Shown here: piece after piece, positions 15,923-33,383 of the stretch | How the letters are laid out: each line of letters begins with the position of its first letter | Position numbering within the stretch: position 1 is the first letter of the stretch | Virus record (IMG/VR): IMGVR_UViG_3300025529_000020 | Span: 1-37,835 of that record | Direction: 5' to 3' (one strand) | Length of the DNA stretch: 37,835 nucleotides | DNA from: a virus | The notes under the pieces: generated by a model | Databases searched by the model: none | Seen by the model: the letters and a program-made list of their open reading frames with translations, nothing else | What the model was told of the DNA's origin: nothing | Made by a program: the position numbers and the translations under genes

Positions 15923-16537
15923 CTACTCGGAGTCGTCTTCCTGGAGCTCTTCCCGGAGCTCATCCCGGTAGCTCGTCAGGCGTTCCAGGATGTCTTCGTA
16001 GGCCTCGTCTGGCAGCACACCGCTGGGAACGCCCTTCTCGAGGTCTACCACGGTCCTACGTGCCAGCTCTTCCAGCTGTTCATCGGTGGTGTCGGTGTCC
16101 ACCTCGTCCCGAACGTAGGGGAACCAGTCGTCCTCGTCGAGGGGGAAGACTTCGTCTTCCGGGAACCACCGGCCGGGGTCTTCCACCAGCTCCGAGATCT
16201 TTTCCTGAGCGCGGAAACCTTCAGGCAGGAGGTAAGCGCGCCAGTCGTTACCATCCCATTCCTCGTCCCAGTGGTCCAGCATGGTTTCCACCAGCGGCTT
16301 GATCTTCTCCATGGTGGCGTTGGCCACGTCCGCGGTGAGCGGGGGGATCCGGAAACGGCGGACGTATCCGGCCCAAACCGACTTGGGGATAGCTCCCCCG
16401 ATTTCCGGGTCGTAGGTGGCGGAGATGGTGCCCCTCTCAAGGTCTACCTCGATGTAGCAGGGCTGTGGCTGGTGGCCCTGGATGTGGCAGTAGAGCTCAC
16501 CGGGGGTTTCCACCTTGATGATGGTTGCCTTCGCCAT
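15923..16537 (-). CDS. Highly acidic hypothetical protein (204 aa)
   Basis: ORF with Asp/Glu-rich C-terminal two-thirds (DEEWDGNDW, EDEVFPLDEDDWFPYVRDEVDTDTTDEQLEE); first gene of the minus-strand early region, divergent from the Xis-like gene. Confidence 0.5.
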   Translation of the reverse strand: MAKATIIKVETPGELYCHIQGHQPQPCYIEVDLERGTISATYDPEIGGAIPKSVWAGYVRRFRIPPLTADVANATMEKIKPLVETMLDHWDEEWDGNDWRAYLLPEGFRAQEKISELVEDPGRWFPEDEVFPLDEDDWFPYVRDEVDTDTTDEQLEELARRTVVDLEKGVPSGVLPDEAYEDILERLTSYRDELREELQEDDSE

Positions 16538-16643
16538 GGTGGTGCTCCTTTCTAGTTGGTACCGCAGTAGTGGTTGATGCGGTTTCTGTCGACCTGATGC
16601 CTACAGCATACCCGGTTGTCGCTTTGTTGTCTACACTGGTGCC

Positions 16644-16844
16644 ATGATTTCTCGATCCGATGACGAGTACGTGGACATGCAGGAGCTGGCACAGATGCTG
16701 GGGGTTCAGTACGCCACCATCCGCCAGCAGCGGTATCGAGGTCGTCTCCCAAAGCCGGACCGGGTGTTCGGGCGTTCCCCGGTGTGGCGGATGGGGACGC
16801 TCAGGCAGTGGGCACGTGAGGCTGGGAAAACCTTGGACGAGTAG
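16644..16844 (+). CDS. Helix-turn-helix DNA-binding protein, excisionase/AlpA-like (66 aa)
   Basis: Plus-strand ORF with HTH-like segment ELAQMLGVQYATIRQQRYRGRLP; followed by a canonical terminator. Confidence 0.6.
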   Translation: MISRSDDEYVDMQELAQMLGVQYATIRQQRYRGRLPKPDRVFGRSPVWRMGTLRQWAREAGKTLDE

Positions 16845-16855
16845 GAGGGATCAAG

Positions 16856-16890
16856 GGCCCCGGGTGTAGTGTCCGGGGCCTTCTTTTTTG
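16856..16890 (+). terminator. Intrinsic terminator after the Xis-like gene
   Basis: GGCCCCGGG-tgtagtgt-CCGGGGCC hairpin followed by TTCTTTTTTG. Confidence 0.75.
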
Positions 16891-17078
16891 TGGGCATGTG
16901 CGGTGTATGCGCTGTTCAGCGTCGGTGTGCGCATGTGTATGTAGTATGAGCATGCTGTGAACACATGCGTGTGCCGGTGGGGCCGTGTTTGTCGTGGAGG
17001 AAATGCGTCGCGGACGTGGTAGAGTGGATGCGGTCATTGTCTCCTGAGTGTGTGCGTGGATGAGTGGACTATGACCAG

Positions 17079-17108
17079 CCCCGGGGTTGGTGCCCCGGGG
17101 TTCTTTTA
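17079..17108 (+). terminator. Plus-strand terminator-like hairpin with no annotated upstream gene
   Basis: CCCCGGGG-ttggtg-CCCCGGGG followed by TTCTTTTAT; no T-tract in the minus orientation. Confidence 0.5.
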
Positions 17109-17323
17109 TGTCCAGACACACAGAGAGCCCCGGTACTGGGTAGCACCGGGGCTCGTGCGGTATGTGGTTATGGTGCTAGACGGTGGTCGGTGTCGACACG
17201 GTCACTCGGCCTCGGTGACCGGGTAGCCGACATGCCCGAGTCTCCGTTCTGAGTTGTGGTTGTGGTTGGGTGGTGCGGCCGCTGGGGCCGCACCGGTTCT
17301 ACTCGACTAGCGGAAACCGCTGG

Positions 17324-18034
17324 CTAGGCGACCTGTTCCCGGCCGGTGCCACCGCACTCACCGCACGCGATCGGCGGGGTGGCATCGTCCACCGGGAGTT
17401 CCCCATATCCGCCGCACGGGCGGCAGGACGGGGGGTTGGCCTGCACGTCCGCCTTGTAGGCGGACTCCAGCCCCTTCAGGGCCGAGAGCGCGGCCCGGGT
17501 CTCCGCCCGGAGCCGAGCGGAGATGAACTGCATCTGTTCCAGGACGGTGAGCTTCCGCACCCCATCCCGGAACGCGTTCACGCTGCCTCGGCGAACCTCG
17601 GCGGCGGCCTCCAACAGCTCCGAGGCTCCCCGACGATCCCGGTCTTCGGTGATCGCCGTTTCTGCGACTCGGATGAACATATCAGCGGCCGTGGTGCGCG
17701 GGGAGGCTGCCATTACCCGCGCGAGGGCGCGGGCCCGCACAGGCTTCCCGTTGACCCGCTCCACGTTAGTGGGGACGACCAGGTCAGTCCGGTGACTGGC
17801 GCGCTCCGCCACGGGGCGAGCGACCACATAAACCACACCGGGCTGAGGGGAGGGGAGAACGTCGTCCGCGTCTCCCAACGCCTCCCGGACCACGGGGATT
17901 CCGTTGATCTCCCCGTCCGGGTAGGTCTCGGCGGGGAGCCGAACCGGGGTCGCCTCCGGCTGGATTACCACCTCGTCCCCGTTCGCGGTGACGAGCGTGA
18001 CGGGGTGCGGGGTGAGGTTGACGATTCTGGTCAT
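17324..18034 (-). CDS. Hypothetical protein with C-terminal DnaJ-type CxxCxGxG zinc-finger pair
   Basis: ATG at 18034 with GGAGG RBS; C-terminus CRPCGGYG...CGECGGTG. Confidence 0.5.
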   Translation of the reverse strand: MTRIVNLTPHPVTLVTANGDEVVIQPEATPVRLPAETYPDGEINGIPVVREALGDADDVLPSPQPGVVYVVARPVAERASHRTDLVVPTNVERVNGKPVRARALARVMAASPRTTAADMFIRVAETAITEDRDRRGASELLEAAAEVRRGSVNAFRDGVRKLTVLEQMQFISARLRAETRAALSALKGLESAYKADVQANPPSCRPCGGYGELPVDDATPPIACGECGGTGREQVA

Positions 18035-18065: not shown

Positions 18066-18095
18066 ACATTAGCATGATTGAGCAGTGCTGAGCAA
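18066..18095 (-). promoter_or_regulatory. Sigma-70-like promoter (TTGCTC - 18 nt - TAATGT) for gene 17324..18034
   Basis: Hexamers with 18-nt spacer read on the minus strand; spacer AGCACTGCTCAA resembles the two other promoters. Confidence 0.45.
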
Positions 18096-18149
18096 GTGTT
18101 GTGAGGGAAGTGCCGGAGAATTTGTTCCCCGGCACTTCCTCAAGTGCCG

Positions 18150-18461
18150 CTAGAACAGCTTGGCGGCTTTCTCCATCTCCGCCCACATCTGAGCGGCGTA
18201 GTCTTCGTCGCGCATGGCGTCCGCGCAGATGTTGATGACGTGGCTACGCCACACTTCCGCACGCTCCTTAGCGGTAGCGTCCCCGGACTCCTCAGCAGCC
18301 AGCATGTCCTGAGTGAGGGTGGTAATCAGCTGCTGCAGCAGGGTACGGGTGGCAGCAGCGGGGTTCTCCGGGGCTGCGGTCAGTCCCAGCGCGGCAGTGG
18401 GAGAAACGCGGAGCAGGGCGATGATGACACCAGCGGCGAAGGCGGGGAGGAAGACGGGCAT
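18150..18461 (-). CDS. Small membrane protein (about 104 aa)
   Basis: ATG at 18461 with AAAGGAGA RBS; N-terminal hydrophobic helix MPVFLPAFAAGVIIALLRV. Confidence 0.5.
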   Translation of the reverse strand: MPVFLPAFAAGVIIALLRVSPTAALGLTAAPENPAAATRTLLQQLITTLTQDMLAAEESGDATAKERAEVWRSHVINICADAMRDEDYAAQMWAEMEKAAKLF

Positions 18462-18495: not shown

Positions 18496-18524
18496 ACTAT
18501 ACCCCATTGCTCAGTACTGCGCAA
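18496..18524 (-). promoter_or_regulatory. Sigma-70-like promoter (TTGCGC - 17 nt - TATAGT)
   Basis: Minus-strand TTGCGC AGTACTGAGCAATGGGG TATAGT immediately after a terminator and upstream of the RBS/ATG at 18461. Confidence 0.6.
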
Positions 18525-18531
18525 GCCATTG

Positions 18532-18562
18532 GAGAAAAATCCCCGGGGCTCTCCCCGGGGCA
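18532..18562 (-). terminator. Intrinsic terminator (CCCCGGGG-agag-CCCCGGGG followed by ATTTTTCTCC)
   Basis: GC hairpin and T-tract on the minus strand after the stop of gene 18566..18796. Confidence 0.65.
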
Positions 18563-18928: not shown

Positions 18929-19213
18929 TTACGGAACGACCTCCCAAGAACGGCCCTTCCAAACGACGTTGTAGCCTTCCCCAAGGTGCTTTTCCACCAG
19001 TCGCGCCGCCACGTCCGGTTCAATGAGGCGCGCAGTCCGCATCGGTTCACACATCGTGGTGTACCGCGCGTAGGTGGTCACGGAGTCTACGGGCTCTTCA
19101 CCGCGGTACAGGGTGAGGATGGTGCGGTCCGGGTGTTCTTCGCGGCGAACCTCCCACAACTTCCATTCCCATTTGTACATGTCTTCTCCTTCGTCCACAG
19201 TTCCGTGAGTCAT
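18929..19213 (-). CDS. Hypothetical protein (94 aa)
   Basis: ORF in early region. Confidence 0.4.
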   Translation of the reverse strand: MTHGTVDEGEDMYKWEWKLWEVRREEHPDRTILTLYRGEEPVDSVTTYARYTTMCEPMRTARLIEPDVAARLVEKHLGEGYNVVWKGRSWEVVP

Positions 19214-19310
19214 TCACGCTACTGCGTGGCGACTCGCTTCGCGGTACACCTCCACAGTACACCACTCGCGCTCATCGAGCAACCGGTAACGCGCGCTCCA
19301 ATTCGTAGAC

Positions 19311-19514
19311 CTACAGCGGGATGCGCAACCGCCCACGTGCCACGGTGGTGCGGTGGCGTGTTTCCATTGCGTCCCGCAGTTCCCGGAACGCTACGCGAGT
19401 GTGGTGGGTCGTTGATACAACGTCGTTTTCTTCGTTGTAGAGAACGACCTCGTATCCGTCGCGGTGTGAGTACACCACTGCCTTGTAGCCACGTGGGAGT
19501 GCGTACGCCTCCAT
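19311..19514 (-). CDS. Hypothetical protein (67 aa)
   Basis: ATG at 19514 with GGGAG RBS, directly downstream of motif site 2. Confidence 0.45.
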   Translation of the reverse strand: MEAYALPRGYKAVVYSHRDGYEVVLYNEENDVVSTTHHTRVAFRELRDAMETRHRTTVARGRLRIPL

Positions 19515-19539
19515 AGAAGTCTCCCTTCGTGTGTGCGTA

Positions 19540-19580
19540 CCTATTGGGGTTACAGGTCCTGGTCTCCGGTAGCGCGCGGG
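19540..19580 (-). promoter_or_regulatory. Conserved motif site 2 (GTTACAGGTCC ... GCGCGC)
   Basis: GTTACAGGTCC at 19549-19559 and GCGCGC at 19572-19577, between sigma gene stop and next gene start. Confidence 0.5.
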
Positions 19581-19602
19581 AGAACCGGGAATTTGTGGGT
19601 GT

Positions 19603-20556
19603 TTACGCGGCTGCCAGCTCGACTACTACCCGCCTCAGCTTTCTCAGCGCAGCGGCCTTGAGGGAACGTACACGTCCGGGATCGATTCCCATGATGTGCG
19701 CGGTCTCGGCGACACTGAGTTCCGGACCGCCCAGTCCGGTCAGGTGTACCAGTGCCTCACGCTCCCGGGGGGACACGTGATCGAGCAGACGATGCACGAG
19801 GTCCCGAGTTTCCACACTGGCTAGTGCAGCGGCCGAGCGGTGGCACTCCGCCGTGTCCCCGATGGTCTGCGTGGCGCTCTCGTCACACAGTTCCGACACC
19901 GGGGTATCCACGGACACATAATGTAGGGCTTCGTGGATGGCATCGAACTGTGCGTAGGACAGACCACGTGCGGTTTTGTCGTCTAGCTGCTGTGCCACAT
20001 CTAGCCCTTCCCGCTCCCAGCGTTCAATACGGCGGTCCAGGATGGCGGCAGCCATGTCATCTCCGGAGTCCGCCATGTCCTGCAGTTCTCGGCCGGTCAA
20101 CCCCTCACGGTGGGCCCATTCGCGTGCGAGTACCGGGTCGTGTCCACACGCTTCCATGGCTCTCCAGTAGCGGTGCTGTGCGGACGAGGAGATGCGGAAC
20201 GGGGAGCTGGCTACAGCGGCCTCCCTCACAGCGTTCTGGATGTGGCGATACGCCACGGTCATAGGTTCTGCAGAACCATCCGGGTCGTAGTCTCGCAGAA
20301 CCTCCACCAGCGCCATTAGCGCGGCCTGGTAGAGGTCCGCGTACTCCGCACTACGCTGGTAGTTTCTGACCAGGTGGTGGATCTGGTCTTCGTAACGTGC
20401 GGCAAGGATGACAAGCCCTTCGTCTCCGTACGCGGGGAGCTGACGGTTGGGGACGTGATCAAGGCCCAGACGTTCTTCGTAGGCACGTGCGGCGGTGCGG
20501 ACTGTGGCACGGACGATGTGTGCGGGGGATCTGGTGGCGATCAGTTCATCCAACAT
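19603..20556 (-). CDS. Phage-encoded sigma-70 family RNA polymerase sigma factor
   Basis: Region 2-like segment DLYQAALMALVEVLRDYDP and region 4-like HTH LSVAETAHIMGIDPGRVRSLKAAALRKLRR. Confidence 0.75.
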   Translation of the reverse strand: MLDELIATRSPAHIVRATVRTAARAYEERLGLDHVPNRQLPAYGDEGLVILAARYEDQIHHLVRNYQRSAEYADLYQAALMALVEVLRDYDPDGSAEPMTVAYRHIQNAVREAAVASSPFRISSSAQHRYWRAMEACGHDPVLAREWAHREGLTGRELQDMADSGDDMAAAILDRRIERWEREGLDVAQQLDDKTARGLSYAQFDAIHEALHYVSVDTPVSELCDESATQTIGDTAECHRSAAALASVETRDLVHRLLDHVSPREREALVHLTGLGGPELSVAETAHIMGIDPGRVRSLKAAALRKLRRVVVELAAA

Positions 20557-20633
20557 GGCGACTCCGTGAGTTGATTCACGGGCCCTGGACTACGCCACGT
20601 CCAGGGCCCACATTGTGGCGGTGGGGGTAGCGG

Positions 20634-20948
20634 TTAGGCAGTGGGGTCATCCCAAGAGTGGATGACCTGAGTTAGGCGGTTGGTGGCCTGCTGCAAGACG
20701 GTGATCGCGTGGCGCACGTCCGGATCCCGGGTGATGCGACGCAGCTCGTCTGCCACACGTTGTCTACGTGGGCAGAGAACCGCCTCCTCTACCGGACGAG
20801 GGACTCCATCAGTGGCCATAGTGCCGCTCCTTGGGGATAGCGGGCTACGCAACACAGACAGTTCGTCTGCCAGTGCCACCGCGCGGGAGAACGCGAGTGG
20901 TGTGGCGACCATGTGCGGGAGTGATTGACGTGGTTTCATAGTACACAC
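20634..20948 (-). CDS. Hypothetical protein (104 aa or shorter)
   Basis: ORF between endonuclease VII-like gene and sigma factor gene; start uncertain. Confidence 0.4.
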   Translation of the reverse strand: MCTMKPRQSLPHMVATPLAFSRAVALADELSVLRSPLSPRSGTMATDGVPRPVEEAVLCPRRQRVADELRRITRDPDVRHAITVLQQATNRLTQVIHSWDDPTA

Positions 20949-20967
20949 TCCGTTTCCGTTTTACCAG

Positions 20968-21456
20968 CTAGTCCGTTTGTGGTCCGTCCGTTACTGTGGG
21001 GGATGGTGTGTTTGTGTCCGCAGAGAGCTGACGTAGGTATTGCGCGGCTCTCTCGAGACGTTCGGGATGGTCCCCCATGAGGCCGAGTGCGGCGTTGCAG
21101 GTGTGGCAGAGCAGCCCACGCACCCGGTGAGTCCGGTGGCAGTGGTCGACCACTAGCCTGCTCCCCGGGGGGTACGGGGGACGTGCACAGATCGCGCACC
21201 GCCACCGTTGTGCCCTAGCCATAGCGGTGTAGTCGGCACTCGTGATCCCGTATCTACGCCGCAGTTTGCGGTCACGTTCGACAGTGCGCTGTTTCCGGGT
21301 TCTGCGCTTGCGGTACGCAGACTCGCAGTCGCGGCAGCGCGTGCCACGGCGGTTCCCTCGAGTGCGGGGGAACCTTCCCAGTGGGAGCGTCTGTCCGCAC
21401 GTGCGACAGTCCCGCACATAGGGGTTCACGCCGTGTATTTCCGGTCGTCCGGACAT
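20968..21456 (-). CDS. Endonuclease VII-family (HNH-like) nuclease, probable Holliday junction resolvase
   Basis: Cys clusters CRTCG...CRDC and VVDHCH...GLLCHTCN motif. Confidence 0.65.
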   Translation of the reverse strand: MSGRPEIHGVNPYVRDCRTCGQTLPLGRFPRTRGNRRGTRCRDCESAYRKRRTRKQRTVERDRKLRRRYGITSADYTAMARAQRWRCAICARPPYPPGSRLVVDHCHRTHRVRGLLCHTCNAALGLMGDHPERLERAAQYLRQLSADTNTPSPTVTDGPQTD

Positions 21457-23306
21457 CCGTACCCATCTCCCCAGCTAGTGCCGTAGATTTCGGGTTCGGA
21501 TTCGATCTGAACCCCGAAAAACGGCATCCGCATCCTCTCCCCCACTGCGTTGATCACGTCCTGAGCCTCGTGGCGTGGGGCTTCAACCAGGATTTCGTCA
21601 TGGACCACACCGATGACATAGGGCAGTAGTCCATCAGCGTCCAGATCCACTAGCGCTTGCCCTAGGACATCGCGCGCGGTGGATTGGCACAGGTAGGCGA
21701 TCGCCGTGTACGTTTTGTCGCGGTCCAGGCGCAGCAGCCGACCGGACGGGGTACGCACGGTCATCCCTTGCTGCTGTGCCATACGGGTGAGGTAGCGGGA
21801 GAACCGTGCGATTTCCGGCAACGCGCGGTCGTACTTGGTCACCGCTGCCTGAACCTGCCGCAGTGGGAGTCCAGTTTGCCGCGCCAACGTACGCGCTCCA
21901 CCGGCGTAGGCCTTCCCCAACGAGATCGTCTTGCACAATGACCGCTGATCTTTGGGGACTGGCTCGTTCTCAGGGATGTTGAACACCAGCCTTGTGGTGT
22001 AGGAGTGCAGGTCCTGTCCTTGGTTGATCGCCTCGATGAGGCGTTCGGCTCCTGCCAGCGCTACGAGCACTCGCAGTTCTACCTGAGCTAGGTCACTTGC
22101 GGCGATGAGGTGTCCGGGCTCTGCCACGACACAGCGACGCACTCGCCAGTCCGATGACGGTAGCTGCTGCAGTGGCGGGTTGGACATCGACCACCGGCCG
22201 GTGCGAGCACCTAGCGTGTTGATGTCGGGGTGAATCCTGCCACTGGGGTCTACAAGCTGCAGCATGGCGTGACCGTAGCTGGCAGCCCATTTCTGCGCAC
22301 GCTTCGCGCGGAGAACAGCATCGGCAAGCGGGTTGGGTTCACGGGCTCCCACTCTCCGCCACTGTGTGTCCAGGTCCGCCATAGGCAGAAGCACTTCTTT
22401 ACCCACCGCCAACTGTCCCGTGGCGGTTGTCTCAGTCAGCGTTTCCCCCATGGCCTGCAGTGCAGCAGCCACTTGGGCAGTAGCGTGCACAGACGTCACC
22501 CCGTACCGCCTAGCCACCGCAGTGTAATGGGCAGCCTCGTTTTCCAGCTCATCCACCAGCGACTTTGTGTAGTTGAGGTCCAGCCGCATCCCCTTACGGC
22601 GGATAATGGTCCCAATACGGGCAATGCGGTGTTCGTACTCCGCCAATGTTGCCGGGATGGCAGCGTCCTCACACGCGCGAAGCAGGTGAGGCAGCAGCCG
22701 AGTTACCAACACCACGTCCGCACCTGCATACGTGAGGAACGCCGGAGTATCCAGCGGGAGTTGAGCCCAACCACTCTCCCGGGTGAGCCCATGCTCACGA
22801 AACACTGCAGCCAGTTCCCGCTGACCATCAGTAGCATGCGGATCCACATAGTGCGCTGCCAGGTTTTTGAGGGCATGCCCAGTGCCGCCCTCATACTCCC
22901 GACGAGGGTCATACAAGTGCGCGTAAATGCGGGTATCCCGGATACGCGGCCACAGTTCCTCTACCGGAATGCCCAGGTGGCGGTCTATGACCAGCGTGTC
23001 ATAGGACGCATTGTGGATGACCAGCTTCGGCAGCGTGCGGAGCGCGTATCGAGCAGCGTGAGCGAACACCTCCCCGTACTCAACTGGCAACAGCCACGCC
23101 TCTTCCGGAGTGCCGAACTGGATCAGACGTAGCCGGTGCGAGTGTAGGAACACGTTCAAGCCGGTGGTCTCGGTGTCGACTCCCACCGGTGTACCACGTT
23201 GGGTCATGCGGTCAACCCAGTCGCGAAACACGTGGATGTCATCAGGATGGTCGACCACATACTGTGTCCACCTGATGTTCCCCATACGTTCGTGTGTGAT
23301 GCGCAT
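21426..23306 (-). CDS. DNA polymerase I (family A) with 3'-5' exonuclease domain
   Basis: Exo motif VGVDTETTGL, polymerase motifs DLAQVELRVLVALAG, KTISLGKAYAGG, VHDEILVE; ATG at 23306 with AGGAGAGG RBS (ORF-track start lies inside the primase gene). Confidence 0.85.
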   Translation of the reverse strand: MRITHERMGNIRWTQYVVDHPDDIHVFRDWVDRMTQRGTPVGVDTETTGLNVFLHSHRLRLIQFGTPEEAWLLPVEYGEVFAHAARYALRTLPKLVIHNASYDTLVIDRHLGIPVEELWPRIRDTRIYAHLYDPRREYEGGTGHALKNLAAHYVDPHATDGQRELAAVFREHGLTRESGWAQLPLDTPAFLTYAGADVVLVTRLLPHLLRACEDAAIPATLAEYEHRIARIGTIIRRKGMRLDLNYTKSLVDELENEAAHYTAVARRYGVTSVHATAQVAAALQAMGETLTETTATGQLAVGKEVLLPMADLDTQWRRVGAREPNPLADAVLRAKRAQKWAASYGHAMLQLVDPSGRIHPDINTLGARTGRWSMSNPPLQQLPSSDWRVRRCVVAEPGHLIAASDLAQVELRVLVALAGAERLIEAINQGQDLHSYTTRLVFNIPENEPVPKDQRSLCKTISLGKAYAGGARTLARQTGLPLRQVQAAVTKYDRALPEIARFSRYLTRMAQQQGMTVRTPSGRLLRLDRDKTYTAIAYLCQSTARDVLGQALVDLDADGLLPYVIGVVHDEILVEAPRHEAQDVINAVGERMRMPFFGVQIESEPEIYGTSWGDGYGCPDDRKYTA

Positions 23307-23367
23307 GCCTCTCCTAACGGACAAAGCGGCCCCCACGCAGTGAGCGCAGGGGCCGTACCCAGTGTAC

Positions 23368-25830
23368 CTAGCGTACCTGACCGAACACGTCACGGTTCCC
23401 ACTCTGCGGGGATGGGTGATCCGCCGCAGTGGGGGAGTTCGCGACCAGCCGCACTCCGATGAGTGTCTGACCACGCTTGGTTTTGACGCGGTCAATACCG
23501 CGTTCCTCTAGGGCCCTGTAGAACGTTTGTCGTTTCCACCGTTCCCGCGGAGGCAGGTTTTCCGCCTCACACCAGTCCATGTAGGCGTTGAACGCGGCGT
23601 TACCCAAAACGCGGTCCTCAGGGTTGCCGGTCTTCTCGAGAACGCCGGGTAGAAAACCCGACAGGGCATCCGAGATCTCTCGGTACTCCCTGGTCGCTTT
23701 ACGCACCACTCCCGGATCCTGCAGACCATTCCGGTACCACTCCACAGCCCCGCGGACTGCCCAAGCCAGAATACCTTCGGCTTCCGCACGGAGCTTATCG
23801 GTCAGCTCATAGTCGCGTTCGTGTGGCTCAAACTTCCTCCTAAACGGGATCATCTTCACCCGACGCCACAAACCATCGTCCTGACCACGGAACAGGGGCT
23901 TGTGGTTAGTGTCCATCAACAGCAGGAACGTGGGCACGAACTCGAAGAACTCCTGCCGCAGGAAGCGGGCCACCAGCACGTTTCCACCGGTGGCTTGCTT
24001 GAGCACTCCTTCCGCCATGGGCTTGTCACGGTCGCCTTCAGAAGCCCGGACAATTCGAGCGCCGCGTAGGGCAGCCAAGTCGTTGGGGATACCCCCCGAG
24101 CGCTCCTCGAAAGTACTGAACGGTGTAGTGCGGGAAATAGCAGAAAACACAGACGTGATCGTGTCCATGAACACGCTTTTCCCGTTCGCACCTTTACCCC
24201 ACAGCACAGCGAAGCATTGTTCGGCGGTGCTCCCTGTGATCCCGTACCCGATGAGCCGCTGCATGTACGCGGGCAATTCCGGGTTGTACGGGAAAATCTC
24301 CTCCAAGAATTTTTCCCAGCGCGGGCACTTGGCGTCCGGCCGGTAGTCCACGTCCACGTAGCGGGTGATCATGTCCTCACGGCGGTGGGGACGCAGCATT
24401 CCCGTACGCAGATCGATGGTGCCGTTTCGGACAGCCAACAGGTCCGCACGTGCGTCGAAATCGCTAGCGCGGACGCGCACACCAGGGACGCTTTGCAACT
24501 CGCGAATGATGTGGTCAATACTCCTGGTCATGAGGAAGCTTCGAGCTTCCTTGGCCTTCCCTACAAGAGCGAGTGCCGCACCAATGCGGTAAACCTCCTG
24601 TCGCACATGGGACTCGGACGGTACCCAGCAGCGTCCATCCCACACGAAAAAGCCCAGCCCAGGCGCGTAGCGGATACGGTTGTCCGCGAACGCCACCAGT
24701 ACGTGAGCCCGCATAACGTCCGTATCCGACTCTGAGAACCGGTCGTGGTACGCACGGTACAACTCGGCGGCGCGTTCCCCATCCTCACGAGTGACCGCAT
24801 CCAGCCCGGTGCGGCTCAGCGCTTCCTTAGCGTCGATGCGCCGTTCCTCGTCCGGAGTGCGGACAGGGCGGGCGGCGCGTACCGCTTCGTGGAGTTTCCC
24901 CGCGAACCCTGCAGGGTCGCGTTCCCGCCAGTCGGTGAGGTCGTCTCCGGCGTTGGGGATGACCAGGTGCCGAACCTCAACCCCGTGGTTACGGAGCGCG
25001 GTGGAGATAGTCTGAGTGAACCGCTGCCCCGCCTCGTCCGCGTCCCCCGCTACCACGACGAGGGAGTCCTTCAGCGCTTCCGCCAGTTCACGTGCGAGTG
25101 CCTCACTCGACATCGCTGCACCGCGGACCGCCACAGCGTCATAACCTGCAGCGACCGCGGTGAGCGCGTCCCCAGGCCCTTCCGTGATGACCACTACGCC
25201 GTAGGATCCGCCGCCGCGCAAAAATCCGTATCGTTGCCACACCTTCCCCTGGGGGTTGCTCAGGCTCACCCACCGGGCTTGACACTTCCCAGTCAGGTCC
25301 CTGCCCTGCAGGCCGCGCACAGTACCGTGGCGGTCGTAGAGAGGGACCACCAGTCGCGGAAACGCGCGGTACGTGCGGGACAGATACGGCAACGTGAACA
25401 CGTCACCGCCCGGGTCAACGCCCACACCGAGATCCGCGGCCTGGTCAACGGTCAACCCGAACCGCCGCTCCACATACTCGGCGGCTAGACGGGCATCGTC
25501 GGTGTACTGTTCCCGAAGCCGCTTGGACGTAGCGTCCACGTATGCGGCGACCGCGGCGATCTCTGCAGGGCCCACCTGGTCAGGCTGGGTGGTGATGAGC
25601 TGTTCCGGTGCGGTCCACTGAAACAGGTCGCGTTCCTGCATGCCGAGTCGTTTCAGAACGTCCTTGGTCTCGCATCCAGCGCGGCAAGTCATCAGCAGCC
25701 TTCCTTCGTTAGTCACCGCCAGCGCGAGTGACGGCCGCTGGTCATCATGTGCAGGACAGTGCACCACCATGTTGCGGCCCTCGTTGACAACGTGCGGAAA
25801 ACGCTCCAGGAACTTGTTGAAGTCGCGCAT
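23368..25830 (-). CDS. Bifunctional primase / D5-like helicase (zinc-binding, Toprim, P-loop NTPase)
   Basis: HCPAHDD...CRAGC zinc motif, Toprim-like ITEGPGDALT, Walker A GKGANGKS; ATG at 25830 with GAGGGGAAG RBS. Confidence 0.75.
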   Translation of the reverse strand: MRDFNKFLERFPHVVNEGRNMVVHCPAHDDQRPSLALAVTNEGRLLMTCRAGCETKDVLKRLGMQERDLFQWTAPEQLITTQPDQVGPAEIAAVAAYVDATSKRLREQYTDDARLAAEYVERRFGLTVDQAADLGVGVDPGGDVFTLPYLSRTYRAFPRLVVPLYDRHGTVRGLQGRDLTGKCQARWVSLSNPQGKVWQRYGFLRGGGSYGVVVITEGPGDALTAVAAGYDAVAVRGAAMSSEALARELAEALKDSLVVVAGDADEAGQRFTQTISTALRNHGVEVRHLVIPNAGDDLTDWRERDPAGFAGKLHEAVRAARPVRTPDEERRIDAKEALSRTGLDAVTREDGERAAELYRAYHDRFSESDTDVMRAHVLVAFADNRIRYAPGLGFFVWDGRCWVPSESHVRQEVYRIGAALALVGKAKEARSFLMTRSIDHIIRELQSVPGVRVRASDFDARADLLAVRNGTIDLRTGMLRPHRREDMITRYVDVDYRPDAKCPRWEKFLEEIFPYNPELPAYMQRLIGYGITGSTAEQCFAVLWGKGANGKSVFMDTITSVFSAISRTTPFSTFEERSGGIPNDLAALRGARIVRASEGDRDKPMAEGVLKQATGGNVLVARFLRQEFFEFVPTFLLLMDTNHKPLFRGQDDGLWRRVKMIPFRRKFEPHERDYELTDKLRAEAEGILAWAVRGAVEWYRNGLQDPGVVRKATREYREISDALSGFLPGVLEKTGNPEDRVLGNAAFNAYMDWCEAENLPPRERWKRQTFYRALEERGIDRVKTKRGQTLIGVRLVANSPTAADHPSPQSGNRDVFGQVR

Positions 25831-25889
25831 ACTTCCCCTCGCAGTGTGCTTACCTGAGAAACCGGTTCCGCGCTTGCGGTGTAACGGGC

Positions 25890-26267
25890 TTATTGCCGGA
25901 GCTCTTTGACCACGCGCACGAACGTCGCACCGGACATGACCACCAAGCACTCGTGGGGACCGCGACCACGAACTTTCACCGCGGCCACACCGAAAGGCAG
26001 TCCAGCGTTCCGCGCTTCCTGTTCGGCTTGGCGAACGTACGCGGGCAGCTCGTGACGTGCCGTGTTTTTACACTCCACGACAAACGGGACTACCCACAGA
26101 TCCCCTACGTCGTGTATCCCCTGCTGTGCTTGGCGACGTGCGTTCAGTGGGGATGTGGGATCTAGGAACTCGTCTCCATCAGGGGTCACGAGCCCCAGTT
26201 CTCGGTTGAGGTAGCGTGCGAACTCGGTTTCCCACCGAGTCCCACGTCTTTTATTCGGGTTAGCCAC
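25890..26267 (-). CDS. PD-(D/E)xK family nuclease, possible Holliday junction resolvase (VRR-NUC-like)
   Basis: E...D(VGD)...ExK (VVECK) arrangement in a 125-aa protein next to replication genes. Confidence 0.45.
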   Translation of the reverse strand: MANPNKRRGTRWETEFARYLNRELGLVTPDGDEFLDPTSPLNARRQAQQGIHDVGDLWVVPFVVECKNTARHELPAYVRQAEQEARNAGLPFGVAAVKVRGRGPHECLVVMSGATFVRVVKELRQ

Positions 26268-26457
26268 GCGCCCCGCCCTCCTCTTGCAACAGCCTCACAT
26301 CAGCACCGCGCGCGTACGCGGTCATAACCGCCTGAGAGAGATCAGCCCAGTCGACTCTGCGGAGCGCGGACCGGTACACGTCCACACGATCGTCCGGACC
26401 CAAAAACCGCAAAACCCCACCGGTGGGAGCGCGGTTCTCCGACACCACGAAATGCAA
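26260..26457 (-). CDS. Hypothetical protein (about 65 aa)
   Basis: TTG start 5 nt after GGAGG within a conserved terminator-RBS cassette. Confidence 0.35.
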   Translation of the reverse strand: MHFVVSENRAPTGGVLRFLGPDDRVDVYRSALRRVDWADLSQAVMTAYARGADVRLLQEEGGARG

Positions 26458-26470
26458 GGTGACCTCCACA

Positions 26471-26512
26471 TAGAAAAGGGGAACCCCGGGATAGTTCCCG
26501 GGGCCGATCGGC
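26471..26512 (-). terminator. Conserved terminator-RBS cassette H1 (CCCCGGGA..TCCCGGGG hairpin + CCCCUUUUCU + GUGGAGG)
   Basis: GC hairpin followed by T-tract on the minus strand, then an SD-like sequence; shares about 40 nt with H2 and the hairpin with H3. Confidence 0.6.
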
Positions 26513-26514
26513 GT

Positions 26515-26985
26515 TTAGTTGCTAGCGGCCACCGCTTCCACCACGTGAGCAGCAGGAGCGGTGACGGTCCACAGGACGTACTCGTCCGTGCTGCCCACAA
26601 CCTCCGCCGTGCGGTTGCCGGTCAGTCCCGGTTCCCCGTGCGGAACGTGGACCAAGAACCGGATGCGGTCCCGAGAGATGTGACCCACGACCTGACACCG
26701 AAGGCCGTGGTACGTGAACCACGTGCCCGGAGTCACGGCCTGACGGTCGTACGCCACGGCCGGGCGGCCGAGACGCGTCTTCGTGGGACGGATAGGAGGC
26801 TTCGTGCGGTGACGCGCGCGGTTCTCCTGGAAGTGCTTCGGATGCGCTTCCTTCACGTGTCGTTCGAACTCCGCCCACGAGGCGAACGGGAGGTCACACC
26901 GCGGCCGGAGTCCCCACGGGATGTCCAACGCCTCTGGAGTTTCCAACTGCAGCCTGCAGTGGGCGCGAAACGTCTCGATGCTCAC
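26515..26985 (-). CDS. Hypothetical Cys/His-containing protein (about 157 aa), moron-like
   Basis: GTG at 26985 with GGAGGA RBS; bracketed by the two related terminator cassettes; ORF-track N-terminus overlaps the upstream HTH gene and is rejected. Confidence 0.45.
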   Translation of the reverse strand: MSIETFRAHCRLQLETPEALDIPWGLRPRCDLPFASWAEFERHVKEAHPKHFQENRARHRTKPPIRPTKTRLGRPAVAYDRQAVTPGTWFTYHGLRCQVVGHISRDRIRFLVHVPHGEPGLTGNRTAEVVGSTDEYVLWTVTAPAAHVVEAVAASN

Positions 26986-26997
26986 GTGTCCTCCACC

Positions 26998-27035
26998 TAG
27001 AAAAGGGGGACCCCGGGAGTTGACTCCCGGAGTCC
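26998..27035 (-). terminator. Conserved terminator-RBS cassette H2
   Basis: CCGGGAG...CTCCCGG hairpin followed by CCCCCTTTTCTAGGTGGAGGA on the minus strand. Confidence 0.6.
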
Positions 27036-27049
27036 CATGGTGAGCGGGG

Positions 27050-27259
27050 CTAGTCGACGTGTCGCCACGTAGTTCGCTGGACCACATGGCGTGCCGCGCG
27101 CTCACTGATACCGAACGCCCTAGCGAGAGAAGAGAGTTGCGCACCAGCGGCATGAGCAGCGCGCAGCGCGCGGACCTTATCCGCAGTGAGCAGCGCTGCC
27201 GGGTTACGCTCCCCGACACTCGGCGGTAGTTCGCGTTGAGTCATCGTCGGTGTGCTCAT
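27050..27259 (-). CDS. Small helix-turn-helix DNA-binding protein (69 aa)
   Basis: ATG overlaps upstream stop (TGATG) with GGGGAGA RBS; HTH-like LSSLARAFGISERAARHVV. Confidence 0.5.
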   Translation of the reverse strand: MSTPTMTQRELPPSVGERNPAALLTADKVRALRAAHAAGAQLSSLARAFGISERAARHVVQRTTWRHVD

Positions 27260-27771
27260 CAGCTGTCTCCCCATAGTTCCCTCAGCGCACGTTCGGTGCG
27301 CGCGCGGATCTCTTCACGCTTCTTGTCGGTCTTACGCCGCACTCGGCTCAGCGCGTTCTGGGTACGACGCACCACGGACTTAACGCGGCTACGGCTAAGT
27401 GTCAGCGACTCGCCTTGCGTACGCTCCACAGCGTCCCGCAACGCGCCGAGGAGCCCGGTCAGGTGCGCGCGCATATCCCGCTCCTGATCCAACTCCGCCT
27501 CTAGGAGCTCAGCGCGCTCACGCAAATAGACGATCTCGCGACCATGCTCAGCACAGTCGGCGGAACGTGCGTGCGCTTCCGCGATACTGCGCTGAGCGTG
27601 GTTGGTCACGGCAGCCCATTGGGCTTGCCAGCGCCCCACTTCCTCGAGCGCGCGAGCGTACCGCTCCTCGAGCCGATCCAAATGCTGGAGAATGTGACGT
27701 GGTACATCCGGGACATTGTGGAGCGCTTCCCGGATAGGTGCGAACTCTCTGGCAGACCGCTTTGCGCTCAT
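27259..27771 (-). CDS. Hypothetical coiled-coil protein (170 aa)
   Basis: Arg/Glu-rich helical ORF, translationally coupled to the downstream HTH gene. Confidence 0.45.
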   Translation of the reverse strand: MSAKRSAREFAPIREALHNVPDVPRHILQHLDRLEERYARALEEVGRWQAQWAAVTNHAQRSIAEAHARSADCAEHGREIVYLRERAELLEAELDQERDMRAHLTGLLGALRDAVERTQGESLTLSRSRVKSVVRRTQNALSRVRRKTDKKREEIRARTERALRELWGDS

Positions 27772-27844
27772 CTGTACGTCCTTACGTGAGTGTTTACGGG
27801 GAAAACGGGCCCGGGACAGTCAGTGACCATCCCGGGCACGCTCG

Positions 27845-28540
27845 TTACTGCGACGCTGCTCCCAGAACACGGAGTACCGGGCGACGGTAGCTCACTGTAC
27901 GCCCCGCCATCTCTCCGCTTTTAGGCACAAAAGACACGTTCTCCAACACGAGGTCGCACCTTGCGGGACCACCCACCGCCGCAAGATCTTCCTGGTAGAG
28001 GTGGAGATAGCTCAGGAAATCCCAGCTCGCGGAGTGGAACCGGAACTCGCCGAGCTCCGGATCATCCGCCAGCCGGAACCGGATCTGCACATCCGGCTTG
28101 GGACCTCGACCTGCTTTTGCCGCGGCCTTCCGCTCAGCCAGCAGCTCCGGACACCCACACGGTTGACCGCGGCGATCCTCGTCCAGGAACGTGACCCCAT
28201 CGCACTCGTGAATACGAACACCGCCCAGTCCCCACAGAACGAGGCGAGCAGAGATAACGTCCGGGCTGGAGATGATCACCGGCAGCGTGTCGGTCTCAGT
28301 GATCACCTCCAGATTGTCTTCTTTAGCGGTGTCCCACTCGGCGACCTCTCCCCCGTACGCGCTCGCCACGGCGTTAGCGACTTCCGGGTCACCGGTGGTG
28401 ATACGCCACGTGGACAGACTCACCGGACGACCGTTGACGGACTTCCCCGAACGAACGCGGCCCACCACGTCGTCCGGGAACGTCATGCGCTTCTTAGGAG
28501 CCGCGTCGGGGTCAGTCTCGAAAATCCTAACTTTCACCAT
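27845..28540 (-). CDS. Hypothetical protein (231 aa), possible recombination partner of the adjacent exonuclease
   Basis: ORF two genes downstream of the RecB-like exonuclease; no recognisable motif. Confidence 0.4.
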   Translation of the reverse strand: MVKVRIFETDPDAAPKKRMTFPDDVVGRVRSGKSVNGRPVSLSTWRITTGDPEVANAVASAYGGEVAEWDTAKEDNLEVITETDTLPVIISSPDVISARLVLWGLGGVRIHECDGVTFLDEDRRGQPCGCPELLAERKAAAKAGRGPKPDVQIRFRLADDPELGEFRFHSASWDFLSYLHLYQEDLAAVGGPARCDLVLENVSFVPKSGEMAGRTVSYRRPVLRVLGAASQ

Positions 28541-28786: not shown

Positions 28787-29614
28787 CTAGGTTCGCCGCT
28801 GTGTGCCAGTCAACAACTGTCCGCCAGTCGCCAACGGGGATCCCAACACTGCCCGTGCCTCCTCACGCTGCCACGTGAGTGCCTCACGGAGCGCCAGAAA
28901 CACCTGATGCATTTCTGCATCCACTCGGACCGGTACCAGTGACCACCGCTCCGGGGTCACGTGGAGCACTGCGCCGCCATCCACACGCGGCATGTCCCGG
29001 GAAGTACCGTCTACGCCGATCAGGCGATCTGCGTACGCGTACGCGGACAACTGCAACGCAACAGTGGGATACACGTCACGGGACGTTTTCCAGTCCACGA
29101 TGATCAGATGCGGAGTCCCTGATCTGTCCGGGGTGGGGGTACGGTCCGGAGCCAGCCAGACACGCAGCAGAGCATCAAAGCTGCCTGCGTACCGAAACCT
29201 GTCCGACCACACCACCTCCTCAGCTGCCACGAGCTCAGGACGTACCGTGTCCAGAAACTCCGCAAAATGATTGCGGTACGGGACGAGGTCGTGCTCCACG
29301 TAACGCGGAGACTCCCCCCTGAGCATGCGCTCAAACAGATCGTGAGCTTTGCTGCCCAGCTCAGCTCGTGCTTGCGTATACCGCCGTGGCGCGGCCTTGA
29401 GCAGGTCTATCGCGGCGGTGGGGTCTGTCTGGACCAGGCCTTGTACCGTATTCCAGTTCTCCACCGCGTACGTTGCCACAGTTTTCGCGGCCCACGGTGG
29501 TAAGAAAGGCTTGTCCAGGACGCTGATGATAGAGGTTACCCCAGGCACTTTGGTGCCAGTGTCGGGGTCCACATACCAGCGCGCTCCCCCACGGGTGAGG
29601 GTTCGGATGGTCAT
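28787..29614 (-). CDS. PD-(D/E)xK (RecB/Cas4-like) exonuclease
   Basis: Motifs D...LIIVDWKTSR and QLSAYAYA (QxxxY); ATG at 29614 with AAAGGAGC RBS. Confidence 0.6.
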   Translation of the reverse strand: MTIRTLTRGGARWYVDPDTGTKVPGVTSIISVLDKPFLPPWAAKTVATYAVENWNTVQGLVQTDPTAAIDLLKAAPRRYTQARAELGSKAHDLFERMLRGESPRYVEHDLVPYRNHFAEFLDTVRPELVAAEEVVWSDRFRYAGSFDALLRVWLAPDRTPTPDRSGTPHLIIVDWKTSRDVYPTVALQLSAYAYADRLIGVDGTSRDMPRVDGGAVLHVTPERWSLVPVRVDAEMHQVFLALREALTWQREEARAVLGSPLATGGQLLTGTQRRT

Positions 29615-29635
29615 ATGTCGCTCCTTTCGCTGTAT

Positions 29636-29672
29636 TCCTAGTTACAGGTCCGCAGCGTGGGGAGCGCGCGTA
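29636..29672 (-). promoter_or_regulatory. Conserved motif site 3 (GTTACAGGTCC ... GGGGAGCGCGCG) with adjacent A5T5 tract
   Basis: First copy of a tandemly duplicated ~117-bp promoter-like unit upstream of the exonuclease gene. Confidence 0.5.
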
Positions 29673-29752
29673 CCGTGGCAGAAAAATTTTTGGTCGACGT
29701 GCTCCGCACCTGGTGAGGGTTCGGATCGCCACGTCGCCCCTTCCGGATCTGT

Positions 29753-29790
29753 CTCTAGTTACAGGTCCGCGGCGGTGGGAGCGCGCGGGT
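29753..29790 (-). promoter_or_regulatory. Conserved motif site 4 (tandem duplicate of site 3)
   Basis: Second copy: GTTACAGGTCC at 29758-29768, GCGCGC at 29781-29786, A4T4 tract at 29798-29808. Confidence 0.5.
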
Positions 29791-29883
29791 CGCGGCAGAA
29801 AATTTTCTGACCGACGTAGCTGCAGCGGGATGGGCACGGAGAGTGAGGGCATGCCCTACGCGGAGTAGAGGAGATGGGGGAGT

Positions 29884-29977
29884 GGTGACGAGTGACGATT
29901 TAGACCTTGTTTTTGTAGTGCTATAGGAGAACCCATAGAACAATGCAAAAACAGGGTCTACATCGTCACTCGTCACC
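29884..29977. repeat. AT-rich island B, bounded by perfect 16-bp inverted repeats GGTGACGAGTGACGAT / ATCGTCACTCGTCACC
   Basis: Perfect 16-bp inverted arms, inner inverted repeat AGACCTTGTTTTTG/CAAAAACAGGGTCT, AT-rich centre. Confidence 0.7.
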
Positions 29978-30048
29978 CCTGGACGAAGAAACCCCGCCAT
30001 CCGTGTCCGGACAGCGGGGCTTCTACGTCGTGTTACTACACCGCGTCG

Positions 30049-30732
30049 CTACCCCAGCGCGGAGCGCAGTACGGCCACGCTTTCTTCAAGCGACACTATC
30101 GCGGCCTGGATCGTTTCCCGCGGCTTACCGGTCAGCGCCACGGTGGCAGACACCGCATCCCTTGCCGCGGTCACGTTCCGTACGTCCTCAGCCAGCTGGC
30201 TCACCGCGCGCACCACATCCTCCGGTGGGCTGTCGGGGTGTACTGTGATGGCCTCTAGTCGACGTAGCGCAGTTTCCGCGCGCTGCCGCTGGCGCTCTCG
30301 GCGTTCCGCCTGCCGTTCTTTCGGCGGTGTCGGGGTGATGCCGTAGTGCGCCAGCGCTTCCGGCGTGTACAGTCCGTTAGCGCGCATGTAGTCGATCCGC
30401 AGCGCTGCCACGTGGTATCTGATCAGCGACTGTAGAGACGCTTCGGAGTCGCTGGGGATGCCGGCTTTCTCATACAGCTGCTGGACTGCTTCCCGGTATC
30501 CCGGGGACGTGCCGCACAGATCTGGCCAACCATCCTTATCCCGGTAGCGTGCCCGCAGATGCAGCACTACCAGCGCTAGGTTGCGTGCTGTTTGTGTCGC
30601 ACGGCCCTGCAGTCTCACATAGTCGCGCACCAGTTTTGCGCCACGGTCGATGAGCTCGTGTACAGGTGCGTCATCCTGGAACACCGTGGCCTCGTCATCT
30701 CGCGGTGGAGTTACCAGCTGTAGTTGTGTCAT
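30049..30732 (-). CDS. Hypothetical protein (227 aa)
   Basis: ATG at 30732; Arg/Glu-rich helical segment ERQAERRERQRQRAE. Confidence 0.45.
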   Translation of the reverse strand: MTQLQLVTPPRDDEATVFQDDAPVHELIDRGAKLVRDYVRLQGRATQTARNLALVVLHLRARYRDKDGWPDLCGTSPGYREAVQQLYEKAGIPSDSEASLQSLIRYHVAALRIDYMRANGLYTPEALAHYGITPTPPKERQAERRERQRQRAETALRRLEAITVHPDSPPEDVVRAVSQLAEDVRNVTAARDAVSATVALTGKPRETIQAAIVSLEESVAVLRSALG

Positions 30733-30804: not shown

Positions 30805-31464
30805 TCATAGGTCGTCTGCGGAACGGTACAGCTCCCCACACTGCGTACATGCCACGGTCTGCGCGTTCAGCACAGTGCGGGACAGCCATAGTGGTCGTTC
30901 CGGAACACAGCGGCACACCGCCTTCGGGCGACGGTTGCTGCTGTGCGGGGTACGTTTCGTTCCGGTGTTCCGTTCCGCGTTCCGTTCCGGATCGGCGTTC
31001 TCCCACTCGCTGCGGCCCACTGCGGCTTCCGCCACGCACGCGGCCCACTCCCCGATCTCGGTGGGGAGCCTCATGTCCGCGTACCCCACATCTTGAGGGG
31101 GGTTGCCACCGCGCCACTCCAGTCCCATGTGTTCCGCTAGTGCGCGGAACCGCGAGTTATGATATCGGCCGCGCTTGGAGGTGTCCGCAACCCCGAGAGC
31201 GTGTGCAAGGGCATGTGCCGCTTCATGGGCAACTTGGCACACCACCTCACGAGGGGGGCGAGCTAGCGCATCGGGGAGTGTCTGCAGCACGTGTGTGTCG
31301 CCAAGAGAAGGCGTGAACCGCAACCACGCGTTCGTGCGTCCGATGGTGGGGACTACGTTCACGGTGACTGCGGGTAGTTGTGGTTCTCGTTCTCGCAGCA
31401 GGTCCCAGATGCGGCGTAGGGTGCGCGCGGTGACTTGCTCTGGGCTCATCTGTGTGGTTGACAT
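30805..31464 (-). CDS. HExxH zinc metallopeptidase (SprT-like or ImmA/IrrE-like) with C-terminal Cys-rich zinc ribbon
   Basis: VAHEAAHALAHALG (HExxH) and C-terminal CRCVPERP...CTQCGELY; ATG at 31464 with GGGGGA RBS (start uncertain, the ORF extends to 31524). Confidence 0.5.
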   Translation of the reverse strand: MSTTQMSPEQVTARTLRRIWDLLREREPQLPAVTVNVVPTIGRTNAWLRFTPSLGDTHVLQTLPDALARPPREVVCQVAHEAAHALAHALGVADTSKRGRYHNSRFRALAEHMGLEWRGGNPPQDVGYADMRLPTEIGEWAACVAEAAVGRSEWENADPERNAERNTGTKRTPHSSNRRPKAVCRCVPERPLWLSRTVLNAQTVACTQCGELYRSADDL

Positions 31465-31561
31465 GCTGACATCCCCCATTCCTATGTGTGGAGTACAGTC
31501 TATCGGTTGCGCAGTATGGGGCAACGGCCCCGGGAAGCGTTACCCGGGGCCGCTGTCGACG

Positions 31562-33353: not shown

Positions 33354-33383
33354 AATATAGCAGACTTGCTCAGTACTGCGCAA
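33354..33383 (-). promoter_or_regulatory. Sigma-70-like promoter (TTGCGC - 18 nt - TATATT)
   Basis: Minus-strand TTGCGC AGTACTGAGCAAGTCTGC TATATT; spacer nearly identical to the promoter at 18496-18524. Confidence 0.6.

Follow-up and report, generated by a model that had tools for sequence, protein, structure and literature searches.

The window analysed here, the whole 37,835-nt stretch of IMG/VR virus record IMGVR_UViG_3300025529_000020, is a complete, circularly permuted genome of a temperate siphovirus with a φC31-like gene order. A tail-protein family (phrog_5313) is split across its two ends (1-778 and 35982-37835), and contig L144, from a virus that we call relative B, runs unbroken across the end junction; the contig on record for the window's own protein has a length of 37,835 bp. 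Nearly all genes are on the minus strand. Read in the direction of transcription, the genome starts with terminase, portal, tape measure, tail and lysin genes followed by a dNMP kinase gene, after which come the first copy of the repeated element that is our subject, a 97-aa gene, a 140-aa gene and a gene for a DUF2637 membrane protein. The second copy is next, with a 219-aa SprT-like gene and a 227-aa gene behind it, and then an exonuclease, a Gp3-like protein, a 74-aa helix-turn-helix (HTH) protein, a primase, a DNA polymerase, endonuclease VII and a sigma-70-family factor. Copy 3 with a 103-aa gene and copy 4 with a 236-aa gene follow, and the order closes with two plus-strand genes, including one for a 66-aa HTH_17 protein, and with the genes for an acidic 204-aa protein and a large serine integrase.

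The sigma factor at the end of the replication module (317 aa, 19603-20556, minus strand) contains regions 2 and 4 and scores above the TIGR02937 cutoff, and it alone received a name in an NCBIfam scan. Scans of the window against Rfam and for tRNAs returned no family and no tRNA. Between convergent genes at 16845-17320 lie ~480 bp of non-coding DNA with strong plus-strand hairpins or terminators, including those at 16854-16882 and 17077-17102; a 58-aa ORF in this interval (17050-17226) is doubtful. Dense GGAACGGAA(C/G) repeats fill 30960-32500 (minus-strand ORF 31562-32854), where they encode an ERNEERNEE low-complexity stretch in the DUF2637 membrane-protein gene and extend into the non-coding DNA past the 140-aa gene, and they occur also at 1000-1089 of contig L008. 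A 430-aa TTG-start ORF is probably over-extended, with its true start likely near 32299.

The repeated element is an 18-bp near-palindrome, TTGCnCAGTACTGnGCAA in the minus-strand reading, which spans the −35 hexamer and the spacer of a predicted promoter. Copy 1 (33366-33383, minus strand; TTGCGCAGTACTGAGCAA) belongs to the promoter TTGCGC-18-TATATT at 33383-33354, with its −10 at 33359-33354. Copy 2 (31507-31524, minus strand; TTGCCCCATACTGCGCAA) belongs to TTGCCC-16-TAGACT, with its −10 at 31502-31497. Copy 3 (18507-18524, minus strand) belongs to TTGCGC-17-TATAGT at 18524-18496 (−10 at 18501-18496) and carries the same 18-mer as copy 1, TTGCGCAGTACTGAGCAA, while copy 4 (18078-18095, minus strand; TTGCTCAGCACTGCTCAA) belongs to TTGCTC-18-TAATGT at 18095-18066 (−10 at 18071-18066). 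All four are intergenic and face minus-strand genes. A search of the window with the palindrome pattern, allowing up to three mismatches, gives these 4 matches where chance predicts 0.08, and 0 of 100 shuffles yield as many. Dyad scores of the window copies are 6-8 of 9, and a score of at least 6 is reached by only 1.6% of window 18-mers.

A sequence-only reading of this DNA had described three sigma-70-like promoters with a nearly identical spacer. The three promoters (18524-18496, 33383-33354 and 18095-18066) are all present on the minus strand exactly as written; the window holds four such sites, and both the palindromic nature of the element and the complete fourth promoter site had been missed. 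Near-identity describes copies 1 and 3, which share their 18-mer, but copy 4 reads TTGCTCAGCACTGCTCAA, and its "spacer" matches at 9 of 12 positions. The conserved block that it had noticed beyond the hexamers is real, but it is not confined to the spacer, since the outer left arm of the dyad TTGCnCAGTACTGnGCAA is itself the −35 hexamer and the reported shared "spacer" is the inner part of the dyad. A lone plus-strand TTGCGCAGTA, listed at 31508-31517, in fact lies at 31507-31516, and it is no stray copy but one half of the full fourth site at 31507-31524, which has its own promoter, ribosome-binding site (RBS) and ATG at 31464.

The surroundings of all four copies follow a common order: hairpin or terminator, dyad, −10, RBS and the ATG of a single gene, with the dyad 40-70 bp 5′ of the start codon. 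An RBS was found downstream of every copy, as had been stated for three of them. The statement that the promoters follow terminators is borne out for two of them, where a terminator scan called hairpins with T-runs: the intrinsic terminator at 33404-33427 (minus strand), which ends the lysis/dNMP-kinase unit directly 5′ of copy 1, and that at 18541-18560 (minus strand), 5′ of copy 3. Copy 4, by contrast, follows a GC-rich hairpin without a T-run (18107-18140, minus strand), recognised by reading the sequence and situated past the 103-aa gene; a further GC-rich hairpin without a T-run (31526-31551, minus strand), likewise read from the sequence and not called as a terminator by the scan, abuts copy 2. 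A generic sigma-70 consensus scan (TTGACA/TATAAT, at least 9 of 12 positions) called none of the four promoters, because their −35 hexamers match TTGACA at only three of six positions. When the window and its relatives are taken together, 12 of 13 distinct copies have a TTGnnn −35, a spacer of 16-18 nt and a TAnnnT −10, the exception being a degenerate copy 5′ of a 76-aa gene in a virus that we call relative A; the −10 hexamers fit the actinobacterial form TAnnnT.

For conservation, we drew on the close relatives A (IMGVR 3300009950_000003) and B (3300009854_000022), a further contig that matches a portion of the window exactly, the metagenome fragments L161, L163, L164, L167, L172, L176, L193 and L194, a lineage without several of the cassette genes (L192, L205, L210) and a diverged lineage (L195, L197, L199, L203). 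Over the 13 distinct copies, conservation amounts to 1.59 bits per position inside the 18-mer, against 0.53 on its upstream side and 0.28 over the four bases that follow. The invariant positions, 10-13 and 16-18 of the 18-mer, all fall in the promoter spacer, and the spacer half of the dyad is better conserved than the −35 half. The −10 sits 4-6 nt from the dyad in these copies and varies in sequence (TATATT, TATAGT, TAGACT, TAATGT, TATGGT, TACGTT, TATGTT, TAAGGT and TAGTGT), and dyad scores range from 6 to 9 of 9 over all copies in the window and its relatives. In the diverged lineage, where proteins are 42-63% identical to those of the window, both recovered copies are a perfect palindrome, TTGTGCAGTACTGCACAA, with a terminator on one side and a −10 (TAAGGT or TAGTGT) on the other. 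TTGTGCAGTACTGCACAA departs from the window form at mirror positions 4 and 15, which are also the most variable pair within the window lineage; this symmetric change is consistent with recognition by a dimer, and is not proof of it.

Copy 1 is identical in relative A, L163 and L193, and copies 3 and 4 are identical in relative A and L164; at copy 2, relative A reads TTGTCCCGTACTGCGCAA. Relative A has six palindromes, of which two are extra when compared with the window and lie 5′ of the 140-aa and 76-aa genes. Relative B lacks the whole 97-aa cassette with copy 1, and it lacks the copy-2 cassette. Judged from these contigs, cassettes are gained and lost quickly between close relatives.

The genes behind the copies are of different kinds. 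The 97-aa gene (33007-33300, minus strand), which copy 1 is predicted to drive, forms a single-gene cassette that ends at a terminator at 32996-32974; the 140-aa gene (32515-32937, minus strand) lies downstream of this unit and has no promoter of its own in the window. Behind copy 2, the 219-aa SprT-like protein (30805-31464, minus strand) has an HEAAH motif and a C-terminal zinc ribbon; its homologues in phages Percival and Pixelle carry the annotation SprT-like protease, and a Streptomyces prophage that encodes a homologue has a different layout. The 103-aa protein behind copy 3 (18150-18461, minus strand) has a signal-peptide-like N-terminus, and the 236-aa protein behind copy 4 (17324-18034, minus strand; phrog_21731) has a C-terminal CxxCxGxG zinc motif. 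The gene for the latter is the only DNA common to the window and cultured phages, with 86-87% nucleotide identity to Thermobifida phages P318 and P1312; on sequence it looks like an exchanged cassette, and its sharing hints at a Thermobifida-like host. In P318, P1312 and two further contigs (L014, L015, L018 and L019, respectively), the 236-aa gene stands behind TTGACG-17-TAnACT promoters without the 18-bp palindrome. These promoters hold another spacer dyad, GCTTCCGG-nn-CCGGAAGC, of the same design but a different operator. The palindrome does not travel with the cargo gene.

A second repeated promoter-like element, GAAAAtTTTTCTGCC...CGCGCGCTCCC...GCGGACCTGTAACTAG, unrelated to the palindrome and apparently serving the replication genes, lies at 29630-29810 on the minus strand of the window. 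Two copies lie 5′ of the exonuclease gene in the window and about five in L192 (10965-11930); the element is also present at 12470-12530 of L144 and, in L195 and L203, 5′ of the exonuclease and Gp3-like genes, the diverged lineage retaining a conserved GGTAACTCCCCTAGA core. It may represent a class of early or middle promoters, which the phage sigma factor possibly recognises. The ORFs 29361-29852 and 29755-30000 are probably spurious.

The gene behind the SprT-like gene encodes a protein of 227 aa homologous to the φC31 c repressor (30049-30732, minus strand), hereafter the c-like protein. It scores 37.2 bits (E = 2.6e-9) with Pfam PF25746, "Streptomyces phage repressor protein c", whose cutoff is 27, over positions 85-163 of the 352 in the profile, and BLASTP aligns it with φC31 c at 29% identity over 126 residues (E = 4e-6; c residues 390-515). 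Residues 390-515 of c belong to its 42-kDa isoform, which suffices to bind DNA. The confident model of the c-like protein (pLDDT 90.4) shows neither a recognisable DNA-binding fold nor a relative of solved structure, and a structure search with it returned generic helical bundles only. Its gene has no Shine-Dalgarno sequence and carries TATGCT 6 nt before the ATG, and a TAnnnT is found there in relative A as well, which is consistent with a leaderless transcript from a promoter of its own. No dyad is present at that promoter, from the terminator at 30794-30761 to the ATG at 30732; the nearest palindrome copy is 5′ of the preceding gene.

In Percival and Pixelle, the c-like homologue directly follows the dNMP kinase gene, which is the slot of c in φC31, and in the window four genes are inserted between the two. 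The short c-like family comprises 384 representative clusters, mostly of 190-260 aa, and its members are labelled "hypothetical" in Arthrobacter and Microbacterium phages. A k-mer search that recovered the φC31 CIR (conserved inverted repeat, the repeated palindrome of that phage, compared below) found no obvious repeated palindrome in Percival or Pixelle; a 13-copy k-mer of Pixelle, CGTGTAAACG, lacks palindromic symmetry and falls for the most part within genes. In Percival, a Microbacterium phage (L149), at least six intergenic regions (18935-27856 and 38699-39079) share a conserved, early-promoter-like motif, ...GGGCA...GGCGCACTCCTyyGTG, with one copy, past the integrase gene, reversed.

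Just 3′ of the c-like gene, at 29880-29985, the window has a long inverted repeat, GGGGTGACGAGTGACGA...TCGTCACTCGTCACC, around an AT-rich core of ~55 bp. It occurs also in L144, L192 and L205, and analogous CGTCATTTC...GAAATGACG structures follow gene 26 and the integrase gene in Percival. We regard it as a candidate replication origin or attachment-site-like element.

Across the lineages compared, the palindrome tracks the c-like gene and not the genes for the 140-aa or 74-aa proteins, and on this ground we favour the c-like protein as the binder. The window and relative A have an intact c-like gene, the 140-aa gene, and four and six palindromes, respectively. L195 and L203 have an intact c-like gene (43% identical) and two palindromes, with no 140-aa gene seen on these short contigs. 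Relative B has a truncated c-like remnant (L144 12133-12372, 62% identity to residues 31-60) and the 140-aa gene; it keeps one palindrome and has lost copy 2, and from its sequence it may be a repressor-deletion derivative, possibly a virulent variant. In L192, the c-like gene is absent, the 140-aa gene is present (73% identical) and the 20 kb covered contain no palindrome. The short contigs L205 and L210 show the 140-aa gene (71-74% identical), no c-like gene and no palindromes; their homologous promoter keeps the terminator, the TATGTT −10 and the leader, and the 18-mer alone is replaced by unrelated sequence. The comparison covers few lineages and partial contigs, so that sites of L192, L205 and L210 may lie beyond the recovered DNA. 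A distant lineage with a c-like protein 36% identical (L213) has no palindrome copy in its 4.8 kb.

What the sequences show is the sites themselves, with their symmetry, promoter-like placement and conservation, and the fact that they accompany the c-like gene. We favour reading the dyad as an operator in view of its symmetry, of its retention in diverged relatives whose flanks and −10 vary, and of a conservation that peaks in the spacer, where RNA polymerase requires no specific bases. Overall, we consider it somewhat more probable than not that the dyad is the operator through which a phage c-like repressor, by predicted binding, blocks the host polymerase at early promoters; we infer that the promoters fire, that a protein binds them, that the effect is repression and that the binder is the c-like protein. 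The repressor mRNA would start at a promoter of its own and be leaderless. The dyad would span about −35 to −18, centred near −26.5, on promoters of host-sigma type (TTGnnn, 16-18 nt, TAnnnT), where a bound repressor dimer would occlude RNA polymerase. The set under its control would consist of hairpin-insulated single-gene cassettes of immediate-early type for which the host polymerase suffices, silent in the lysogen and fired together on infection or induction. Their products would be the 97-aa protein, the SprT-like protein, the small secreted-looking protein and the zinc-motif protein found also in Thermobifida phages, and in relatives the winged-helix 140-aa protein would join them. The earlier proposal of an operator overlapping the promoter, bound by a lysogeny repressor or an early regulator, is favoured by the dyad, the spacer conservation and the relatives, but the two HTH proteins that it named as binders are not.

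The main alternative, which we consider unlikely, is that the palindrome is bound by the 140-aa winged-helix protein, either as a dimeric repressor of ArsR/MarR type that controls its own gene or as an early regulator resembling Cro, and that this protein acts on the other cassettes too. Its model joins an N-terminal beta domain to a canonical C-terminal winged helix with pLDDT above 90 in that domain, and its best structural matches are the dimeric, palindrome-binding repressors NolR, SmtB, HlyU and MarR at a probability of about 1.0, although with E values of only about 0.01. A palindrome promoter lies directly 5′ of the 140-aa gene in A, B, L161, L172, L176 and L194, and in the window this gene is the second of the copy-1 unit. 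Yet this arrangement is not universal, as the palindrome is missing directly 5′ of the 140-aa gene in the window, L192, L205 and L210. In the last three, moreover, the protein is kept at 71-74% identity with an essentially unchanged recognition helix, while its promoter is without the 18-mer. Conversely, the L195 lineage has the palindrome and no 140-aa homologue was found in it, a point weakened by the shortness of its contigs.

Rather less probable still is a different binder: the 66-aa HTH_17/MerR-like protein, the 74-aa HTH protein, or a host regulator that the phage exploits. The 66-aa protein (16644-16844) has position on its side, being the only opposite-strand gene and adjoining the integrase gene, the classic place of a divergently transcribed lysogeny gene; it is leaderless and 100% identical between the window and relative A. 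Against this, its control region (16537-16644) has neither a palindrome nor a half-site, so no site lies near its own promoter. MerR-type promoters have an over-long spacer, typically of 19-20 nt, whereas the spacers here are 16-18 nt, and MerR-type activation is unlikely because spacers of that length are already optimal. As for the 74-aa protein (27050-27274 in our annotation, 27050-27259 in the earlier one), it is 89% identical in L192, which has no palindrome in 20 kb. A host factor may be the binder, but sites that are dropped in close relatives of similar GC content are harder to explain for such a factor, and the palindrome is not known to match any actinobacterial regulator motif.

The acidic 204-aa protein encoded beside the integrase was considered as a DNA binder and rejected on composition, and tblastn of it against phage records gave no match. 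A degenerate 18-mer scan of the genome collection gave, among the matches listed (at least 120 loci), none related to the window and no prophage or host. Among the sequences seen there, TTGCGCAGTACTGCGCAA, a perfect 18-mer, is the core of a longer palindrome, AAGTGCGCAAGAAG-...-CTTCTTGCGCACTT, in many Pseudomonas genomes (about 100 loci, L027 onwards), and it occurs also at L004 14470, L012 242 and L013 10092. The Pseudomonas element is unrelated to the window palindrome.

It is improbable that there is no operator at all and that the copies are recent duplicates of one promoter cassette with incidental symmetry. Duplication would agree with the gain and loss of cassettes between close relatives, and it is suggested by sequence common to the leaders of the 97-aa gene and the 140-aa gene. 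It does not agree with the distribution of conservation: the 18-mer alone is common to the copies, which diverge in the 4-6 nt next to it, in the −10 and in the flanks, and the spacer half is conserved above the −35 half. Nor does it explain why the symmetry is kept, and indeed made perfect by a pair of mirror-image changes, in a lineage whose proteins are about 42% identical. Finally, that the palindrome is a restriction-modification target (the ScaI-type AGTACT at the centre of copies 1 and 3) or a nucleic-acid hairpin is barely credible, as AGTACT is neither enriched nor avoided in the window (5 occurrences against 3.4 expected) and is missing from two of the four copies, and the dyad, which lacks a loop, is situated 5′ of the point where transcription is predicted to begin.

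Beyond this genome, we tentatively suggest, as a possibility that we hold to be on balance doubtful, that short c-like proteins are unrecognised immunity repressors of a broad φC31-like actinophage group, that in the present lineage the repressor acts on a promoter-embedded dyad carried by small, rapidly swapped promoter-gene-terminator cassettes, which together make up an immediate-early regulon of accessory genes under its control, and that the operators decay after the repressor is lost (in relative B, and then in L205 and L210). If our reading of the operator and its repressor is right, it defines the immunity operator and the immediate-early regulon of uncultured, thermophile-associated, φC31-like temperate phages, and it gives a function to a widespread protein family now annotated as hypothetical. 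It would also describe a compact repressible promoter (an 18-bp operator with TAnnnT), a possible genetic part for actinobacteria, and would provide a small natural example of operators lost after the loss of the repressor gene.

The closest known system is that of φC31. The two genomes share structural and lysis genes, a dNMP kinase, a repressor region, early primase and polymerase genes and a large serine integrase on one strand, as well as a palindrome of 16-18 bp repeated between genes and often beside terminators. The CIR that we derived directly from the φC31 genome, CCTACTCACGTGAGTAGG, has at least 15 intergenic copies, against 4-6 here (four in the window, six in relative A), and is unrelated in sequence to the window palindrome. 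Every copy here lies across the −35 and the spacer of a sigma-70-like promoter that belongs to an early single-gene cassette, while those of φC31 are also found between late genes and inside terminator stems. φC31 c is a large repressor expressed as three in-frame isoforms and is autoregulated via an operator at its own promoter. The protein here has 227 aa against the 683 aa of c, with the N-terminal part of c missing and no sign of in-frame isoforms, and an autoregulatory operator copy at the repressor gene is not seen. In both phages, the gene of the PF25746 repressor family is on the same strand as the virion genes and downstream of them (PMC4557955).

For φC31 and L5, 18-30 dispersed repressor sites are reported (PMC4557955); the L5 gp71/R4 type of repressor, from temperate actinophages, acts at many dispersed sites in short intergenic regions, and R4-like phages encode the repressor between their lysis and their early genes (PMC4557955, PMC10276819). 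The stoperators of L5 and R4 are asymmetric sites of 13-14 bp, bound by a monomer and orientation-dependent, which block elongation and are many per genome within transcribed regions. The sites here are instead symmetric (6-9 of 9), few (four in the window) and placed on core promoters, where they would block initiation.

With the CI/Cro operators of lambda, the element shares a dyad of ~17-18 bp over the −35/−10 region of early promoters, where in lambda a dimeric repressor occludes the polymerase, but it has neither tandem operator triplets nor a divergent cI/cro switch; its copies are single and scattered before separate single-gene units. Actinobacteriophages of clusters EG (18 bp, GATCAACCNNGGTTGATC) and O (17 bp) have start-associated intergenic inverted repeats (PMC7302621). 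The likeness extends to an 18-bp inverted repeat in short intergenic regions, in 8-10 copies there, conserved where the surrounding DNA has diverged (PMC7302621). The EG and O repeats are located 14-22 bp 5′ of start codons, and the phages that carry them have neither repressor nor integrase, whereas those described here lie 40-70 bp from the start codon, embedded in promoters of a temperate phage. Set beside these systems, the element is a real phage control element of an ordinary kind and leaves the current view of phage regulation unchallenged.
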